From sequence record PZ386951.1: 64,000 bases of DNA. One strand, written 5' to 3'. This DNA is from a phage. Each line of letters opens with the position of its first letter. Positions within the stretch are counted from its first letter, which is position 1. Shown here piece after piece: positions 33-62,461 of the stretch. A model generated the notes under the pieces. That model was not told the origin of the DNA, did not search any database, and worked only from the letters and a program-made list of their open reading frames with translations. Position numbers and translations under genes: made by a program.

Positions 33-2012
33 ATGACTTTATTATCTCCGGGCATTGAGCTCAAAGAAACTACGGTTCAAAGCACCGTGGTTAATAACTC
101 TACTGGTACAGCAGCTTTGGCCGGTAAATTCCAGTGGGGTCCTGCTTTTCAGATTAAACAGGTTACAAATGAAGTAGATTTAGTTAATACTTTTGGTCAA
201 CCAACCGCTGAAACTGCTGACTATTTTATGTCTGCGATGAATTTCTTGCAGTACGGAAATGACTTACGAGTAGTTCGTGCTGTTGATAGAGATACCGCTA
301 AAAACTCATCTCCGATTGCTGGTAATATTGAATACACGATTTCTACCCCAGGTAGTAACTATGCAGTTGGAGATAAAATCACGGTCAAATATGTTTCAGA
401 TGATATTGAAACTGAAGGTAAAATTACTGAAGTAGACGCAGATGGAAAAATTAAGAAAATTAATATTCCTACTGCAAAAATTATCGCTAAAGCTAAAGAA
501 GTCGGTGAATATCCGGAATTAGGTTCTAACTGGACTGCGGAAATTTCTTCGTCTTCCTCTGGTTTAGCTGCAGTAATAACTCTTGGAAAAATTATTACTG
601 ATTCTGGTATTTTATTAGCTGAAATTGAAAATGCTGAAGCTGCTATGACAGCGGTTGACTTTCAAGCAAATCTCGAAAAATACGGAATTCCAGGAGTAGT
701 AGCTCTTTATCCAGGCGAATTAGGCGATAAAATTGAAATTGAAATCGTATCTAAAGCTGACTACGCAAAAGGAGCTTCTGCATTACTGCCAATTTATCCA
801 GGTGGTGGTACTCGTGCATCTACTGCCAAAGCGGTGTTTGGATATGGACCACAAACTGATTCGCAATACGCTATTATAGTTCGTCGTAATGATGCTATTG
901 TTCAAAGCGTTGTTCTTTCAACTAAGCGCGGTGAAAAAGATATTTACGATAGTAACATCTATATCGATGACTTTTTCGCAAAAGGTGGTTCAGAATATAT
1001 TTTTGCAACTGCACAAAACTGGCCAGAAGGCTTCTCTGGAATTTTAACTCTGTCTGGTGGATTATCATCAAATGCTGAAGTAACAGCAGGAGATTTGATG
1101 GAAGCTTGGGACTTCTTTGCTGACCGTGAATCTGTTGACGTTCAACTGTTTATTGCGGGTTCTTGTGCCGGTGAATCTTTAGAAACAGCATCTACTGTCC
1201 AAAAACACGTCGTTTCAATTGGGGATGCTCGCCAAGATTGCTTAGTATTATGCTCTCCTCCGCGTGAAACTGTAGTTGGAATTCCTGTAACTCGTGCAGT
1301 AGATAACTTAGTCAATTGGAGAACTGCGACAGGTTCATACACTGATAATAACTTTAATATCAGTTCAACCTATGCAGCAATTGATGGTAACTATAAGTAT
1401 CAGTATGACAAATATAATGATGTGAATCGTTGGGTTCCATTAGCAGCTGATATTGCTGGTTTATGCGCAAGAACTGATAACGTATCTCAGACTTGGATGT
1501 CTCCAGCTGGTTATAATCGTGGCCAGATTCTTAACGTTATTAAACTTGCTATTGAAACTCGCCAGGCTCAGCGTGACCGTTTATACCAAGAAGCTATCAA
1601 CCCAGTAACTGGTACAGGTGGTGATGGTTACGTATTGTATGGTGATAAAACAGCTACTTCTGTTCCTTCTCCATTTGATCGTATTAACGTTCGTCGTCTG
1701 TTTAATATGTTGAAAACGAATATCGGACGTAGTTCAAAATATCGTTTGTTCGAATTAAACAACGCGTTTACTCGTTCATCATTCCGCACAGAAACTGCCC
1801 AGTACTTACAGGGAATTAAAGCTCTCGGTGGAATTTATGAATATCGTGTAGTTTGCGATACAACAAATAACACTCCGTCAGTAATTGATAGAAATGAGTT
1901 TGTTGCAACATTCTACATCCAACCGGCTAGAAGCATTAACTACATTACCTTAAACTTCGTAGCAACTGCTACTGGTGCAGACTTCGATGAGTTAACTGGT
2001 CTTGCAGGTTAA
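33..2012 (+). CDS. 18: tail sheath protein gp18
   Basis: 659 aa; N-terminus MTLLSPGIELKETTVQS matches T4 gp18 as recalled; ATG at 33 preceded by AGAGGA. Confidence 0.95.
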   Translation: MTLLSPGIELKETTVQSTVVNNSTGTAALAGKFQWGPAFQIKQVTNEVDLVNTFGQPTAETADYFMSAMNFLQYGNDLRVVRAVDRDTAKNSSPIAGNIEYTISTPGSNYAVGDKITVKYVSDDIETEGKITEVDADGKIKKINIPTAKIIAKAKEVGEYPELGSNWTAEISSSSSGLAAVITLGKIITDSGILLAEIENAEAAMTAVDFQANLEKYGIPGVVALYPGELGDKIEIEIVSKADYAKGASALLPIYPGGGTRASTAKAVFGYGPQTDSQYAIIVRRNDAIVQSVVLSTKRGEKDIYDSNIYIDDFFAKGGSEYIFATAQNWPEGFSGILTLSGGLSSNAEVTAGDLMEAWDFFADRESVDVQLFIAGSCAGESLETASTVQKHVVSIGDARQDCLVLCSPPRETVVGIPVTRAVDNLVNWRTATGSYTDNNFNISSTYAAIDGNYKYQYDKYNDVNRWVPLAADIAGLCARTDNVSQTWMSPAGYNRGQILNVIKLAIETRQAQRDRLYQEAINPVTGTGGDGYVLYGDKTATSVPSPFDRINVRRLFNMLKTNIGRSSKYRLFELNNAFTRSSFRTETAQYLQGIKALGGIYEYRVVCDTTNNTPSVIDRNEFVATFYIQPARSINYITLNFVATATGADFDELTGLAG

Positions 2013-2625: not shown

Positions 2626-4277
<1,652 letters not shown>

Positions 4278-6447: not shown

Positions 6448-8013
6448 ATGACTATCAAAACTAAAGCTGAACTTTTGAACAAATGGAAGCCATTACTGGA
6501 AGGTGAAGGTTTACCGGAAATTGCTAATAGCAAACAAGCGATTATCGCTAAAATCTTTGAAAACCAGGAAAAAGATTTCCAGACAGCTCCGGAATATAAA
6601 GACGAAAAAATTGCTCAGGCATTCGGTTCTTTCTTAACAGAAGCTGAAATCGGTGGTGACCACGGTTACAACGCTACTAACATCGCTGCAGGTCAGACTT
6701 CTGGCGCAGTAACTCAGATTGGCCCAGCTGTTATGGGTATGGTACGTCGTGCTATTCCTAACCTGATTGCTTTCGATATTTGCGGTGTTCAGCCGATGAA
6801 CAGCCCAACCGGTCAGGTATTCGCACTCCGCGCAGTATATGGTAAAGACCCAATCGCTGCCGATGCTAAAGAAGCATTCCACCCAATGTATGGTCCAGAT
6901 GCAATGTTCTCTGGTCAGGGTGCTGCTAAGAAATTCACTGCTTTAACCGCTGGCACCACTACTGTCAAAGGTGATATCTATACTTACTTCTTCCAGGAAA
7001 CCGGTACTGTATATCTGCAAGCTTCCGCTGTAGTAACAATTAGTTCAAGCGCCGATGACGCAGCTAAATTAGACGCCGAAGTTAAAAAACAAATGGAAGC
7101 TGGTGCACTGGTAGAAATCGCTGAAGGTATGGCTACTTCTATCGCTGAACTTCAGGAAGGTTTTAACGGTTCTACTGATAACCCATGGAATGAAATGGGC
7201 TTCCGTATCGATAAACAAGTTATCGAAGCTAAATCTCGCCAGCTGAAAGCTGCTTACTCTATCGAATTAGCACAAGACCTCCGCGCTGTTCATGGTATGG
7301 ATGCTGACGCTGAACTGTCCGGTATTCTGGCTACCGAAATCATGCTGGAAATCAACCGCGAAGTTGTTGATTGGATTAACTACTCAGCGCAGGTTGGTAA
7401 ATCTGGTATGACCCTGACTCCGGGTTCTAAAGCTGGTGTATTTGACTTCCAGGATCCGATTGATATTCGTGGTGCTCGCTGGGCAGGTGAATCCTTTAAA
7501 GCTCTGTTGTTCCAGATTGACAAAGAAGCAGTTGAAATTGCTCGTCAGACTGGTCGCGGTGAAGGTAACTTCATTATCGCTTCCCGTAACGTAGTTAACG
7601 TTCTGGCTTCAGTTGATACCGGCATTTCTTATGCTGCACAGGGTCTGGCTACCGGCTTTAACACTGATACTACCAAGTCAGTATTTGCTGGTGTTCTGGG
7701 TGGTAAATACCGTGTATATATTGACCAGTATGCTAAACAGGATTATTTCACTGTAGGTTATAAAGGTCCGAACGAAATGGATGCTGGTATTTACTATGCT
7801 CCATATGTAGCTCTGACTCCGCTGCGTGGTTCCGATCCGAAGAACTTCCAACCAGTAATGGGATTCAAAACTCGTTACGGTATCGGTATTAACCCATTTG
7901 CAGAATCCGCTGCTCAGGCTCCGGCTTCTCGCATTCAGAGCGGTATGCCTTCTATCCTGAACAGCCTTGGTAAAAACGCTTACTTTAGACGTGTATATGT
8001 TAAAGGTATCTAA
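6448..8013 (+). CDS. 23: major capsid protein gp23
   Basis: 521 aa; MTIKTKAELLNKWKPLLEGEGLPEIANSKQAIIAKIFENQ matches T4 gp23 as recalled; elevated GC from codon bias. Confidence 0.97.
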   Translation: MTIKTKAELLNKWKPLLEGEGLPEIANSKQAIIAKIFENQEKDFQTAPEYKDEKIAQAFGSFLTEAEIGGDHGYNATNIAAGQTSGAVTQIGPAVMGMVRRAIPNLIAFDICGVQPMNSPTGQVFALRAVYGKDPIAADAKEAFHPMYGPDAMFSGQGAAKKFTALTAGTTTVKGDIYTYFFQETGTVYLQASAVVTISSSADDAAKLDAEVKKQMEAGALVEIAEGMATSIAELQEGFNGSTDNPWNEMGFRIDKQVIEAKSRQLKAAYSIELAQDLRAVHGMDADAELSGILATEIMLEINREVVDWINYSAQVGKSGMTLTPGSKAGVFDFQDPIDIRGARWAGESFKALLFQIDKEAVEIARQTGRGEGNFIIASRNVVNVLASVDTGISYAAQGLATGFNTDTTKSVFAGVLGGKYRVYIDQYAKQDYFTVGYKGPNEMDAGIYYAPYVALTPLRGSDPKNFQPVMGFKTRYGIGINPFAESAAQAPASRIQSGMPSILNSLGKNAYFRRVYVKGI

Positions 8014-8039
8014 TCTCTAACGATAGAAACACAATTTTA

Positions 8040-8057
8040 GGGAACCTTCGGGTTCCC
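8040..8057. terminator. GC-rich hairpin with TTCG loop, followed by a T tract
   Basis: GGGAACC-TTCG-GGTTCCC then TTTTTC; lies between convergent genes 23 and the seg-like gene. Confidence 0.6.
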
Positions 8058-8062
8058 TTTTT

Positions 8063-8725
8063 CTATTTTATACGATAGCAATCAGGCATATCATCCGCAT
8101 TTATCCAATTGCGAATAGTTTTAGGACTAACTTTAAAATGCTCCGCTGCGTAATCAGGATTATCAAATTTAACGCCCTTTATACATATTGGAATAAATTT
8201 TTTAATACCACCAAGTTTTTCAGAAATAGCTTTACGATGTGAAATCGATATAGGTTTATTTTTTCGTGGATGAACATGTGTTTTATAATATTCATTGCGC
8301 CCTTTAACTCGCTTCGCAATAGTTTCATCAGATTGCTTAACGCCTGTTTTTGCCTTTGATATTTTTCGTTTAGCTTCCACAGTCATTCCTTCTTTTGTTC
8401 GTATTGATAACATATTACGATATGAAGGATCTTGCAAATGAACTATAACTGGATTTCCTCTGCCACCAATAGCAGCATTATAGGTATCAGTTCTCATAAC
8501 GAATTCCTCATTGACTAGTAAAGCTTCCATTTTATACATCTCCTCAGATGAGGAGAAAGAATAAAGAATTTCTTTTTTAAAGTTATGAATACCATATTTT
8601 TTGATGGATTTTTTGATGTTTACGCCAGAACCCATATAACCATCGTTTTCGTCAAGAGTAGCATGAGCTCCGATGTAAATTTTTCCATTGATGATATTAG
8701 TAATTTGATATATTAAATATTTCAT
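8063..8725 (-). CDS. segD: GIY-YIG homing endonuclease, Seg family (segD-like)
   Basis: N-terminal YLIYQITNIINGKIYIGA GIY-YIG motif; free-standing between genes 23 and 24; start taken at the ATG with GGAG 11 nt upstream (track starts at 8764). Confidence 0.7.
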   Translation of the reverse strand: MKYLIYQITNIINGKIYIGAHATLDENDGYMGSGVNIKKSIKKYGIHNFKKEILYSFSSSEEMYKMEALLVNEEFVMRTDTYNAAIGGRGNPVIVHLQDPSYRNMLSIRTKEGMTVEAKRKISKAKTGVKQSDETIAKRVKGRNEYYKTHVHPRKNKPISISHRKAISEKLGGIKKFIPICIKGVKFDNPDYAAEHFKVSPKTIRNWINADDMPDCYRIK

Positions 8726-8789
8726 TTTAAACATCGCTCCGTTTGTATATGAATATAATATCATATTACTTTGGTCTTGTAAATAACTT

Positions 8790-8797
8790 TATAAATA
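8790..8797 (+). promoter_or_regulatory. T4-type late promoter TATAAATA upstream of gene 24
   Basis: exact TATAAATA 28 nt upstream of ATG 8825. Confidence 0.6.
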
Positions 8798-8824
8798 GTA
8801 TTATATTTCAACAAGGAAAATACA

Positions 8825-10108
8825 ATGGCTAAAATCAACGAACTTCTGCGCGAATCAACCACAACGAATAGCAACTCAATCGGTCGCCCAAATCTCGTTG
8901 CTTTGACTCGCGCTACCACTAAATTAATATATTCTGACATTGTAGCAACGCAAAGAACTAATCAACCTGTTGCTGCTTTTTATGGTATCAAATACCTTAA
9001 CCCAGACAATGAATTTACATTTAAAACTGGTGCTACTTACGCTGGCGAAGCTGGATATGTAGACCGAGAACAAATCACAGAATTAACAGAAGAGTCTAAA
9101 TTAACTCTCAATAAAGGCGATTTATTCAAATATAATAACATCGTTTATAAAGTATTAGAAGATACACCATTTGCTGATATTGAAGAAAGCGATTTAGAAT
9201 TAGCTCTTCAGATTGCAATTGTTCTTTTAAAGGTTCGTCTATTTTCTGACGCAGCGTCAACGAGCAAATTTGAAAGCTCTGATAGCGAAATTGCTGATGC
9301 TAGATTCCAGATTAATAAATGGCAAACCGCCGTTAAATCTCGTAAACTTAAAACTGGCATTACAGTTGAATTAGCACAAGATTTAGAAGCAAACGGATTC
9401 GACGCTCCTAATTTCCTGGAAGATTTGCTTGCAACCGAAATGGCGGATGAAATCAACAAAGATATTTTACAATCTTTGATTACCGTATCAAAACGCTATA
9501 AAGTTACAGGAATTACTGATACTGGATTCATCGATTTGAGTTATGCATCTGCTCCTGAAGCAGGTCGTTCATTATACCGAATGGTATGTGAAATGGTTTC
9601 GCATATCCAAAAAGAATCAACTTATACAGCAACGTTCTGTGTTGCTTCTGCTCGTGCCGCTGCGATTCTTGCTGCATCAGGTTGGTTAAAACATAAACCA
9701 GAAGATGACAAATATCTTTCACAAAATGCCTACGGGTTCTTAGCTAATGGTTTACCGCTTTATTGCGATACTAACAGCCCATTAGATTATGTAATCGTTG
9801 GTGTAGTAGAAAATATCGGTGAAAAAGAAATTGTTGGATCAATTTTCTATGCTCCGTATACAGAAGGTCTCGACTTAGATGACCCTGAACATGTAGGTGC
9901 ATTTAAAGTTGTTGTTGATCCAGAAAGCTTACAACCATCTATCGGTTTATTAGTTAGATATGCTTTATCAGCAAATCCTTATACCGTAGCAAAAGATGAA
10001 AAAGAAGCAAGAATAATCGACGGTGGAGACATGGATAAAATGGCGGGTCGTTCAGATTTGTCTGTTTTATTAGGTGTTAAATTACCCAAAATTATTATCG
10101 ATGAATAA
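8825..10108 (+). CDS. 24: head vertex protein gp24
   Basis: 427 aa, gp23-like fold; same length and position as T4 gp24. Confidence 0.93.
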   Translation: MAKINELLRESTTTNSNSIGRPNLVALTRATTKLIYSDIVATQRTNQPVAAFYGIKYLNPDNEFTFKTGATYAGEAGYVDREQITELTEESKLTLNKGDLFKYNNIVYKVLEDTPFADIEESDLELALQIAIVLLKVRLFSDAASTSKFESSDSEIADARFQINKWQTAVKSRKLKTGITVELAQDLEANGFDAPNFLEDLLATEMADEINKDILQSLITVSKRYKVTGITDTGFIDLSYASAPEAGRSLYRMVCEMVSHIQKESTYTATFCVASARAAAILAASGWLKHKPEDDKYLSQNAYGFLANGLPLYCDTNSPLDYVIVGVVENIGEKEIVGSIFYAPYTEGLDLDDPEHVGAFKVVVDPESLQPSIGLLVRYALSANPYTVAKDEKEARIIDGGDMDKMAGRSDLSVLLGVKLPKIIIDE

Positions 10109-10114
10109 AACAAA

Positions 10115-10130
10115 GGGACCTTTCGGTCCC
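10115..10130. terminator. GC-rich hairpin GGGACC-TTTCG-GTCCC with T tract
   Basis: inverted repeat followed by TTTTTATTT between convergent 24 and rnlB. Confidence 0.6.
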
Positions 10131-10137
10131 TTTTTAT

Positions 10138-11142
10138 TTAGCTCACCAACTCAATCCAAGCTGGACGAAGTACATCTTGCACCATTTTAACTAATTCCTT
10201 TTTAATCAAAGAAGGATTATCCGCTTGAGTTAGAGTAATACCTTCACGAGAAGTTTCTTCCAAAATATCTTGGACAGTTAGCCCCATCACCTTTCCAAAA
10301 TCCTTTGGACCAATTTCACCAATTTTAGAAATAACGTTATTTACTCGGTTCAGTGTAACGTAACAAGCTAAAATCCCCACCAATTTGTTATCAGCTTCTG
10401 ACAGTTCAACTTTAGCTTTAATAGGCTTATCAGACTTTTTCTTTTCACTAAATTTAGAGTTCTTGCATTTAATTGCTACACGATTGCCATTAGGCATCCA
10501 AGAAGGATAACAAGGTTTCAATACATATCCTTCAGCGGTAAATACTTCGCCTTTGGCTTCGGCATTCCAAACGCATTTATTTGCATCAACTAATCCAGCA
10601 TGGTCTACTGTAAAATTATAATCTTGGACGACAGAATCTAAATCATTTGGCAATTTAATAAGCTCTTCAAATTTACCGCGACCTAAAAGTGGAGCCATTT
10701 TAAATTTAAATGTATTACAGAATGATTCCATCATATAATCATCGACATAAGTCACATCACCACTTTCTGTAGTGACAATAATGTCAAATACATAAAAATC
10801 TTTATCGCCATAATCGACATTCTTCTGAATGCCAGGTCCAGCGAATTCGCCAAAAACTTGATAAGATACAACTGCTGAAGTTTCCATAATATCTTGTACT
10901 GCTTTAATGGAATCAGCGTAATTCTTTAGAATAATTTCATACCCAAAGAAATCTTCAGCAGGAAGAATAGGACCAGTACGTTTAGCACAAGTTACTTTAT
11001 CACGCTCAATAATCAATGAAAAGTTTGTACCATGAATCTTTTCACGAGCTACCCATTCGCCGCCAGTCAATCCCAAGCTATAAAGTTTTTCAATAAATTT
11101 AGAGTTGTAATGATTTTCAAGACTGCTATACTTTTTAAACAT
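10138..11142 (-). CDS. rnlB: RNA ligase 2
   Basis: 334 aa; [42 protein letters not shown] with lysine nucleotidyltransferase KxHGxN motif; matches T4 Rnl2. Confidence 0.95.
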
Positions 11143-11151
11143 AATTAATCC

Positions 11152-11430
11152 TCAAAATGTAATTTCTAACCAATCACCATCACGCTGATCACTATTGACT
11201 TTAAAATTAAATCCTTCTTTTCTCAGCCAATCACCAATTTCTTCAGTAATCAATTTATCGCGAGCAGTACAATAATAACTAAAATATGTTTTACCTTGTT
11301 CAGCTGCTTTATTAGCAAGTTCCGAAAAATCTTTAATAAAACACTCTAGTTTAAACTGTTTACTTTTAAGTGCTTTTTCGCGCAATTGATTAGCAAAAGA
11401 TTCATTTTCATAAAGATCATACTGTTCCAT
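11152..11430 (-). CDS. hypothetical protein (T4 24.2 position)
   Basis: 92 aa ORF with ATG start, tightly packed after rnlB. Confidence 0.55.
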   Translation of the reverse strand: MEQYDLYENESFANQLREKALKSKQFKLECFIKDFSELANKAAEQGKTYFSYYCTARDKLITEEIGDWLRKEGFNFKVNSDQRDGDWLEITF

Positions 11431-11727: not shown

Positions 11728-13425
11728 TTATGGATAGGTATAGATGATACCAGTTTCTAAAGCAGTTTTATGAATGATGTATCCATTACGTGATTCTTGA
11801 ACATCAACTTCTGGATAGTCTTTCATCATCTTCTGAAGGGTGTAACGATGCAGGTAGTATTTACTATCTGGATCGTCAATTTTCCAATCTTTACCTTCTT
11901 CGGTCATTTTTTGTATTTCATCCATAACCCACCAACCGCACCAGATATAAGCTGAAGTACGATGTGGAAGAGGATGAACATAAGGCAATTCACCTTTAGG
12001 AGCAGGAGCTACTTTAGCCGTGACTGTTACATTACCAGTTTTGGTAACGGTTACAGGGTTATAATCTGCAGCAGATACAACAACAGAAACGCCAATCACT
12101 TGGGACCCTATATCAGACGTGTCAATCGCTAAAGTGCTAGTAGAACCTTCTACAGGAGAACCATCTTTGGTCCAAGAATAAACCCCAGTTGCACCTCCCG
12201 GAGCACCGATAACGTTGGCTTTAAAAGATGCCTCAGAACCTTGTTCAGTCATAATAGACTCAGGAGTCAGAGTAACTGAAACTCCGCTCATAGTCTTTTT
12301 GGTAATAGTTACATTACCGGTTTTAGTAACTGTAACCGACTTATAATCTGGGGCAGAAACAACAGCCGAAACCTCAATTACCTGTGACCCGATAGTAGAT
12401 GTATCAACTTCTAGAGTATTTGTTGAGCCATCAACAGGAGACCCGTCTTTGGTCCATGAATAAGCTACAGATGCTCCTGCCGGCGCTCCAGTAACATCGG
12501 CTTTAAAAGATGCTTCTGCTCCTTTTTCAGCGGTAATTGAACTAGGCGTTAGAGTAACAGAAACGGCTCCCATAGTCTTTTTAGTAAAAACAACCTCAAT
12601 ACCGTTAGTCGCAGTAGCTGGGTTATAATTTAATGCAGAAACCGTTACTTCACAATTCAGTGTGTAGCTGGTTTCCGTCGATTCAGTCAAGGTAATTGTT
12701 TTAGCAGTCTGACCTTCAATAACGGCATTATCACGTTTCCAGACATAAGCGATACTTGCACCTTCTGGAGCACCAACAACGTTAGCTGTAACTACCTGAG
12801 ACTGCCCAATCTCTTTGGAAACAGAAGTCGGGCTCAAAGTAACTGAAACACCGCTCATGGTCTTTTTAATAAAAGCAACAGCAATGCCTTTAGTTGCAGT
12901 TCCATTATTATATTCTGGAGCAGAAACCGTTACTTCACAATTCAGTGTGTAGCTGGTTTCCGTCGATTCAGTCAAGGTAATTGTTTTACTAGTTTGACCG
13001 GAAATAACAGAAGAGCCACGTTTCCAAACATAAGCAATGCTTGCTCCTGACGGTGCGCCAGTAACATCAGCTGTGACTACCTGAGATTGACCAACTTCCT
13101 TAGAAACAGAAGTCGGGCTCAAGGTTAAAGTAATTGCAGGCATAGTTTTGTTCTGAACGGTCAGAGTGGTTTCTGCCTCAGCAGTTTCTGCCACACCCTC
13201 TGCTGGGGTAACAGTAGCAACTACTTTAACAGTCTTACTACCTGCAGGTCCTGTAGCAACGTAATTCATAGCTGCGGTGACAGAAGATTGTTTTACGCCG
13301 TTTACTGTCCACACAAACGTTTCTGTGCCTTCAGCTGCGGCACCAGAAGTTGTTGCAGTAAAATTGGTTGTTGCTCCAATGACTGCCGAAGCAGCCAAAG
13401 GAGCAATAGATACGCTATAAGCCAT
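11728..13425 (-). CDS. hoc: Hoc outer capsid decoration protein with five Ig-like repeats
   Basis: 565 aa; five roughly 95 aa Ig-like repeats plus a C-terminal capsid-binding domain (YIWCGWWVMDEIQK); T4 position between 24.3 and inh. Confidence 0.85.
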   Translation of the reverse strand: MAYSVSIAPLAASAVIGATTNFTATTSGAAAEGTETFVWTVNGVKQSSVTAAMNYVATGPAGSKTVKVVATVTPAEGVAETAEAETTLTVQNKTMPAITLTLSPTSVSKEVGQSQVVTADVTGAPSGASIAYVWKRGSSVISGQTSKTITLTESTETSYTLNCEVTVSAPEYNNGTATKGIAVAFIKKTMSGVSVTLSPTSVSKEIGQSQVVTANVVGAPEGASIAYVWKRDNAVIEGQTAKTITLTESTETSYTLNCEVTVSALNYNPATATNGIEVVFTKKTMGAVSVTLTPSSITAEKGAEASFKADVTGAPAGASVAYSWTKDGSPVDGSTNTLEVDTSTIGSQVIEVSAVVSAPDYKSVTVTKTGNVTITKKTMSGVSVTLTPESIMTEQGSEASFKANVIGAPGGATGVYSWTKDGSPVEGSTSTLAIDTSDIGSQVIGVSVVVSAADYNPVTVTKTGNVTVTAKVAPAPKGELPYVHPLPHRTSAYIWCGWWVMDEIQKMTEEGKDWKIDDPDSKYYLHRYTLQKMMKDYPEVDVQESRNGYIIHKTALETGIIYTYP

Positions 13426-33512: not shown

Positions 33513-33563
33513 CTCCTTTGTTTGTGTAAAATAATACTATCACAAAGGAGCTATACTGTAAAC
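33513..33563 (-). promoter_or_regulatory. early promoter with stem-loop whose arm contains the Shine-Dalgarno
   Basis: minus-strand GTTTAC -35; inverted repeat CTCCTTTGT/ACAAAGGAG; the gene-proximal arm encodes AAGGAG for the ORF starting at 33506. Confidence 0.45.
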
Positions 33564-47884: not shown

Positions 47885-47941
47885 TTTATTCTCCTCAGTA
47901 GTTGATAGAGTAATAGTATCACACTACTACCCTGTTGTAAA

Positions 47942-48579: not shown

Positions 48580-48684
48580 ATTATTTTTCCCCTTTAATTA
48601 TCAGCAGTATTGCCGATAGTTGTATAATACCATGGAACGACAAGGATGTAAACAGTTTTGTGAAAAAATTTTTAAAATAAAAAA

Positions 48685-62308: not shown

Positions 62309-62461
62309 TCAATTAGCTGACTTTGTTATAATATCATCAGACGCTTGATTTGTAAACTGGTCTGTGTTATTTTCTTCAAAAATTTTTTCTACGAATTCCT
62401 TGAACGACTCACGTTCCTGAGCTACATTATGCTCGATTACCATTTCAAGATTATGACTCAT
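62309..62461 (-). CDS. small hypothetical protein (asiA.1 position)
   Basis: 50 aa ORF absent from the track; hand-translated MSHNLEMVIEHNVAQERESFKEF; overlaps the arn stop by 4 nt. Confidence 0.4.
   Translation of the reverse strand: MSHNLEMVIEHNVAQERESFKEFVEKIFEENNTDQFTNQASDDIITKSAN

Follow-up and report, generated by a model that had tools for sequence, protein, structure and literature searches.

The window analysed here (64,000 nucleotides of phage DNA; sequence record PZ386951.1) comes from a Tequatrovirus that is identical to no record, the closest being RB18 (97.9% identity over 94% of the first 25 kb). Between gene 23, for the major capsid protein, and gene 24, for the capsid vertex protein, it carries a minus-strand open reading frame that ends in a TAG stop (8065–8063). 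The ORF layout and the family matches confirm the original prediction of a free-standing GIY-YIG gene of the Seg type, lying on the opposite strand between genes 23 and 24. A comparison with SegD proteins, which had been proposed as a check, found the 223-residue translation identical to T4 SegD (NP_049788.2) at 223 of 223 positions; the gene is therefore already known, in a T4-like phage. The corresponding 1 kb of DNA is 99.2–99.7% identical to T4, T6, RB18, PST and others (99.2–99.3% for T4), relatives in which this position is annotated as 'segD homing endonuclease, GIY-YIG family', and the antisense layout between genes 23 and 24 is likewise annotated in T4, RB18, T6 and PST. The protein (223 residues), its position, its orientation and its context of terminator and late promoter are the same as in T4, whereas five nucleotides of the cassette differ and the genome around it is nearest to RB18, not T4. 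The gene, its family, its antisense position and its lack of homing are thus all already known, and the locus has little discovery value because the first three are textbook T4 biology and the last has been published; what may be added to the annotation is where segD translation starts and, against a review that found none, a likely early promoter. The comparison set was built from GenBank phage records. When every window ORF of 60 residues or more was searched with SegD by phmmer, no paralogue (a SegE-like or SegG-like protein, for example) appeared at E ≤ 1, and no SegD relatives in IMG/VR viral contigs were confirmed by tblastn.

Table 1. Features of the segD locus, in window coordinates
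Feature	Position	Strand	Basis or description
Gene 23, major capsid protein, left neighbour	6448..8013	+	521-aa ORF; annotated so in T4, RB18 and other aligned records
segD cassette, whole 811-bp intergenic allele	8014..8824	.	Relatives without segD have an 83-bp spacer in its place
Gene 23 intrinsic terminator hairpin, GGGAACC-TTCG-GGTTCCC then TTTTT	8039..8058	+	Terminator scan and fold
segD CDS from the conserved start, 220 aa, MKYLIYQ...	8063..8725	-	223/223 identity to T4 SegD; orthologue starts
Predicted C-terminal DNA-binding region, beta-beta and helix-turn-helix, I-TevI type	8072..8278	-	1I3J profile and Foldseek matches
GIY-YIG catalytic domain, N-terminal, about residues 4–91 (223-aa numbering)	8462..8725	-	Pfam/NCBIfam, 1MK0 profile match, Foldseek 1LN0, invariant columns
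Shine-Dalgarno-like GGAG	8737..8740	-	Read from the sequence; 2 nt before ATG 8734, 11 nt before ATG 8725
Candidate segD promoter, T4 early (sigma-70) type	8755..8783	-	TTTACA, 17-nt spacer, TATTAT, TG two bases before the -10
Gene 24 late promoter TATAAATA	8790..8797	+	T4 late-promoter motif; 27 nt upstream of the gene 24 start codon
Gene 24, capsid vertex protein, right neighbour	8825..10108	+	427-aa ORF; annotated so in T4 and RB18

Both of the signals that had been said to bracket the gene, the gene 23 terminator and the gene 24 late promoter, were found (Table 1). The hairpin folds at −13.8 kcal/mol on the plus strand and −13.4 kcal/mol on the minus strand, with a z score of about −4.4; it also stands 4 nt past the segD stop, its T-tract being poor on the minus strand. 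In the fPS-65 and SA79RD records, the counterpart of this gene 24 element carries a late-promoter annotation. From this layout it is plausible that the position of segD does not disturb late expression, as the original prediction had it. A second strong hairpin, with a perfect 9-bp stem, occupies positions 10112–10133 between gene 24 and rnlB and was called as a terminator in both orientations; any read-through towards segD from the rnlB side would meet a barrier there.

Three in-frame ATG codons could open the segD reading frame, at 8725 (220 residues), 8734 (223 residues) and 8764 (233 residues, the longest ORF). The T4 reference annotation uses 8734, three codons earlier than 8725 (NP_049788.2). 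The Met aligned with ATG 8725 is the first residue in 19 of 20 orthologues, homologues from across the Tevenvirinae align, by tblastn, from residue 4 or 6 of the 223-residue query onwards, and in the BCPEco001 variant (98% identical) ATG 8734 is replaced by GTG and the gene is annotated from the equivalent of 8725. The spacing of only 2 nt between GGAG and the annotated segD ATG has already been questioned (PMC2988022). We infer from these comparisons that translation probably starts at ATG 8725, which is better supported than the reference start; the start codon originally chosen is thus the one that the orthologues favour over the T4 annotation. A possible 10-codon extension from a second ATG had also been suggested. 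Upstream ATGs do exist, but they lie 3 and 13 codons from 8725, and it is ATG 8734, not 8725, that ATG 8764 precedes by 10 codons. An RNA structure masking the segD start region was considered and rejected, the fold reaching only −1.8 kcal/mol and shuffled sequences doing equally well. A 59-residue minus-strand ORF (8761–8940) overlaps the start of gene 24.

Upstream of the start codon lies an early-type promoter candidate, which a consensus scan scored at 10 matches out of 12 plus the TG; its −35 is preceded by A, where G is the usual base. Where 0.11 exact matches to TTTACA-N17-TAnTAT would be expected, the window has five, every one of them on the minus strand, and two of the four matches elsewhere coincide with 'predicted early promoter' features of fPS-65; conversely, four of the eight early promoters annotated in the compared stretch of fPS-65 fit the pattern. 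The five minus-strand sites (8755–8783, 33534–33562, 47913–47941, 48624–48652 and 62328–62356), each with a TG two bases ahead of the −10, resemble early promoters of the T4 type as judged from their motifs. A general promoter scan of the AT-rich segD region gave no enrichment over shuffles. The −35 of the candidate is 6 nt from TATAAATA, and the two elements are divergent and back-to-back. In the Mosigvirus phages AV109 and SA79RD an early-type element precedes an 89-residue ORF and is as far from the gene 24 late promoter as the candidate is, with both hexamers and the spacer length conserved and the spacer sequence unrelated; in SA79RD it is annotated as a T4-type early promoter. An inferred transcript start near 8748 would exclude ATG 8764. 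Bioinformatic searches summarized in a 2010 review found no promoter specific to segD, and transcript levels were supposed to be vanishingly low (PMC2988022). On balance we lean towards segD having an early-type promoter of its own (8783–8755), back-to-back with the gene 24 late promoter at a distance of 6 nt, with translation from ATG 8725; the divergent layout would be conserved in Mosigvirus, where it would drive the 89-residue ORF with or without a SegD-like gene. The expression of segD may already have been covered by Sokolov et al. (2018).

The product matches PHROG 314 'homing endonuclease' (4.9e-57) and scores above the cut-off of the Pfam family SegE_GIY-YIG (PF19835; 27.8 bits, cut-off 25), below that of PF01541 (19.1 bits, cut-off 22.6) and 0.25 bits under that of TIGR01453 'group I intron endonuclease' (55.8 bits, cut-off 56.05). 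Searched against the PDB, a profile of 21 orthologues matched the DNA-binding domain of I-TevI (PDB code 1I3J; E = 1e-4) and its catalytic domain (PDB code 1MK0; E = 0.0044). The orthologue profile was needed for this result, the single sequence giving only a marginal match to 1I3J (E = 0.43). Weak Pfam matches to HTH_17 and NUMOD3 fall in the C-terminal region, and the secondary structure predicted for the N-terminal part consists of strands at residues 5–13 and 19–26, a helix at 38–47, a strand at 52–60 and a helix at 63–73. An AlphaFold model (mean pLDDT 75.7, about 80–90 in both domains and about 90 for residues 181–223) had 1LN0 (TM 0.60) and 1I3J as its best two Foldseek matches, with a probability of 1.00 each. 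As modelled, SegD is predicted to be an I-TevI-like two-domain enzyme, with a GIY-YIG nuclease head joined by a helical linker to a helix-turn-helix tail.

I-TevI, the enzyme of the T4 td intron (1LN0/1MK0 and 1I3J), shares this two-domain build with SegD, including aligned Tyr-Tyr and Tyr-Asn motifs and a C-terminal helix-turn-helix domain that gives a clear '...ISxxGVxFDxxxxAAxHFxxS' match. It differs in being encoded by an intron, whereas SegD is free-standing, and identity in the aligned parts is only about 23–30%; none of the zinc-finger cysteines of the I-TevI linker was seen in SegD in the single-sequence PDB alignment. Closer relatives are SegA, SegB, SegC, SegE, SegF and SegG of T4, which belong to the same family and have N-terminal domains about 50% identical to that of SegD by tblastn, segB of RB32 being an example. 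The Seg genes of T4 are all free-standing and occupy intergenic gaps beside essential genes; those for SegA, B, C, E, F and G are listed as mobile or active and are oriented as their neighbours are, segD being the sole antisense exception (PMC2988022).

Frameshifts and the loss of catalytic residues had been raised as possible signs against an endonuclease. The gene is intact, and its 20 orthologues (47–89% identity) are of full length and share 45 invariant residues distributed across the two domains (Y9, Y20, E70, Y85 and N86 among them), which indicates purifying selection. In the profile alignment, LIY (Y9) and IYIG (Y20) align exactly with Y6 and Y17 of I-TevI and N86 aligns exactly with N90, while the invariant E70 falls one position from E75. 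The R27 of I-TevI lies in a stretch inserted with respect to the SegD profile and has no SegD residue aligned to it. As R27 is without an alignable counterpart in the SegD clade, the active-site chemistry is not fully accounted for by sequence. Where I-TevI has the R27 helix, SegD residues 24–33 (8635–8665, minus strand) form an invariant H-x-T...D-x-Y-M-G-S-G block with no arginine aligned.

Among 501 Tequatrovirus records that match the region at 95–99% identity, 53 (about one tenth) carry segD. In T2, RB5 and fPS-65 the two capsid genes are separated by an 83-nt spacer with its own versions of the hairpin, of TATAAATA and of the ribosome site. It is the entire intergenic allele that differs between segD+ and segD− phages, not merely an insert, and the cassette comes with a terminator for gene 23 and a late promoter and ribosome-binding site for gene 24, each in a version of its own. 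The gene thus has the marks of a free-standing mobile cassette, being sporadic in close relatives that offer a clean empty site in the form of the 83-nt spacer.

A 6 kb alignment of 12 Tequatroviruses, seven of them segD+ and five segD−, contains 24 fixed differences between the two groups, all of which are intergenic (8017–8094 and 8812–8822); none lies inside gene 23 or gene 24. The 811-bp cassettes of the segD+ phages differ from that of the window at 0–9 positions (0 in RB18 and 5 in T4), whereas their flanks diverge by 2–7%, with 16–66 differences per flank segment of about 800 bp; the adjoining 813 bp of gene 23 show 16–26 differences from the window and the first 576 bp of gene 24 show 10–18. 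Flanks from segD− phages are as close to the window as those from segD+ phages, RB5, for example, differing from it at 6 positions within the initial 576 bp of gene 24. Since the cassette is far more uniform than its flanks, it has a much younger common ancestor than they do and has moved between phages as a unit. Its uniformity and its presence in about one in ten records together argue that it was spread or retained as one unit amid free recombination of the surrounding capsid genes. No capsid-gene haplotype travelling with the cassette was detectable in the 12-phage alignment. A nuclease cassette that spread in this way without dragging capsid-gene alleles along fits the description of a 'stranded' homing endonuclease.

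The same alignment contains two long invariant runs, the first 176 nt of gene 24 (8825–9000) and the first 143 nt of gene 23 (6448–6590), which are identical in all 12 phages and are the longest such runs in their genes, the remainder having about 8–10% polymorphic sites. The run at 8825–9000 was considered as a SegD target or co-conversion tract and rejected, being equally invariant in phages without segD and having a counterpart in the similar 143-nt 5' run of gene 23; its first 88 nt are, moreover, diverged in Mosigvirus. In PP01 (2664–3140 of the compared piece), segD has a 1-nt deletion in a T-run at the equivalent of window position 8573 and is annotated with a truncated 158-residue product; this could be either gene decay or a sequencing error.

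SegD is reportedly a site-specific endonuclease with a 16-bp site, is said to leave 3' overhangs and is said to be expressed from segD during infection; its cleavage site is reportedly identical in segD+ and segD− genomes. If the site is indeed the same in both, SegD would be unable to tell donor from recipient, which would explain the lack of drive. SegD is called an endonuclease, and segD is stated not to home, in the Sokolov et al. (2018) title that PMC10448857 and PMC9523250 cite, and the summary of that work in PMC9523250 adds that neither homing nor recombination was found at a SegD site placed in rII.

The original prediction held that enzymes of this kind cut the intron-less allele of related phages and bias the inheritance of flanking capsid-gene alleles. 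The wording of the first part is a misnomer, as SegD is free-standing and no intron is involved. The second part is contradicted, for this exact protein, by the published report of no homing in the form in which it is cited, and it finds no support in the seven segD+ and five segD− phages compared here, in which the flanks show no fixed differences and are no closer among carriers. Cutting the empty allele and biasing capsid-gene inheritance are the usual behaviour of the family and are not supported for SegD.

The reading that we prefer, with a probability of roughly 85%, is that segD is a known free-standing GIY-YIG gene in an RB18-like Tequatrovirus, that it most likely encodes an expressed site-specific nuclease and that its cassette was once mobile and is no longer an efficient drive here. 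Under this reading, segD would be transcribed early from its own sigma-70-type promoter (8783–8755), back-to-back with the gene 24 late promoter, and SegD translation would be initiated at ATG 8725. The early and late timing, together with the shared hairpin, would limit clashes with capsid-gene transcription. The cassette would have moved in the past, through break repair or ordinary recombination, and SegD would now be an expressed site-specific nuclease that has ceased to be an efficient gene drive here. Low diversity of the cassette is also what recent homing would be expected to leave; that segD is no longer a drive therefore rests on one laboratory study, as represented by its title and later summaries.

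The alternative of homing that is still active, with SegD cutting the 23–24 junction of segD-less relatives and repair copying the cassette along with adjoining capsid-gene sequence, draws on a mechanism that has been shown for other T4 Seg enzymes, six of which are listed as mobile (PMC2988022). It would also agree with the sporadic distribution (53 of about 500 records), with a cassette that is nearly identical in divergent backgrounds and with the presence of SegD-family genes at the equivalent gap in Mosigvirus and Slopekvirus. Against it stand the absence of homing and of recombination stimulation at the site, as Sokolov et al. (2018) is represented in PMC10448857 and PMC9523250. The alignment likewise shows no fixed differences in genes 23 and 24, segD+ flanks that are no closer and no co-conversion tract beyond the intergenic region. 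We regard active homing as unlikely.

SegD might instead be a re-purposed nuclease, kept because it cuts another target, be it a competing phage, a satellite or the host, or because it has a regulatory role resembling the autorepression of I-TevI. A nuclease that is called an endonuclease and yet does not home, to go by the Sokolov et al. (2018) title that PMC10448857 and PMC9523250 give, would suit such a role; the protein is conserved across genera, and there are precedents for defence genes derived from homing endonucleases (PMC10448857). This analysis gave no sign of another target, and segD is absent from about 90% of close relatives and therefore dispensable, which makes re-purposing quite improbable. 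Least probable by our estimate is a silent relic, an intact and essentially unexpressed segD tolerated as harmless between terminator and promoter: the early-type promoter is positionally conserved in two genera, the orthologues (47–89% identity) are full length with 45 invariant residues in both domains, and segD is, as noted, said to be expressed during infection, while the truncation of PP01 segD by a 1-nt deletion would fit such a relic. The same idea could appeal to the unsuccessful promoter searches, the poor spacing of the ribosome site, the antisense orientation and the vanishingly low transcript levels that have been proposed (PMC2988022).

Other phages also carry genes in the gap between genes 23 and 24. 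The SegD-like gene of Mosigvirus (AV109, JK45) encodes a protein 58% identical to SegD over the full length and that of Slopekvirus (VAC66, KLB1) one that is about 41% identical over the full length; both lie between the genes for the major capsid and vertex proteins. They differ from the arrangement in the window in that the Mosigvirus gene starts, in some members, 4 nt after the stop of the 89-residue ORF and that the Slopekvirus gene is on the strand of gene 23. Within Slopekvirus, a SegD-like gene is present in VAC66 and absent in VAC13 (PMC8778798). In the Mosigvirus gaps compared (AV109, 772–1701 of the piece, minus strand; SA79RD, 767–1036, minus strand), the 89-residue ORF (phrog_6003) lies behind the early-type promoter. 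In vB_EcoM-RPN226 the gap holds a 503-residue ORF (765–2276 of the piece, minus strand) of another family, which matches PHROG 3339 'homing endonuclease' (2e-142) and, weakly, Pfam REase_MTES_1575; it is oriented as segD is, the hairpin to its left being of the segD+ type and the junction to its right of the segD-less type. The gap between genes 23 and 24 has thus taken in cargo repeatedly, and of at least three kinds.

Variation elsewhere in the window is also uneven. In gene 23, a hypervariable patch of 174 nt (6912–7085) is polymorphic at 72 sites in the 12-phage set, a density far in excess of the gene's average. Beyond gene 24, the rnlB region (10400–11000) is unusually polymorphic, with 52–74 variable sites per 200 nt among segD+ phages, and over positions 10109–11400 PP01 and the segD-less phages differ from the window at 142–206 sites. 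A Hoc-like head-decoration gene (11728–13425, minus strand) encodes 565 residues, more than T4 Hoc has, and includes a 282-nt tandem duplication (12026–12587; 76% match), which suggests extra Ig-like repeats.
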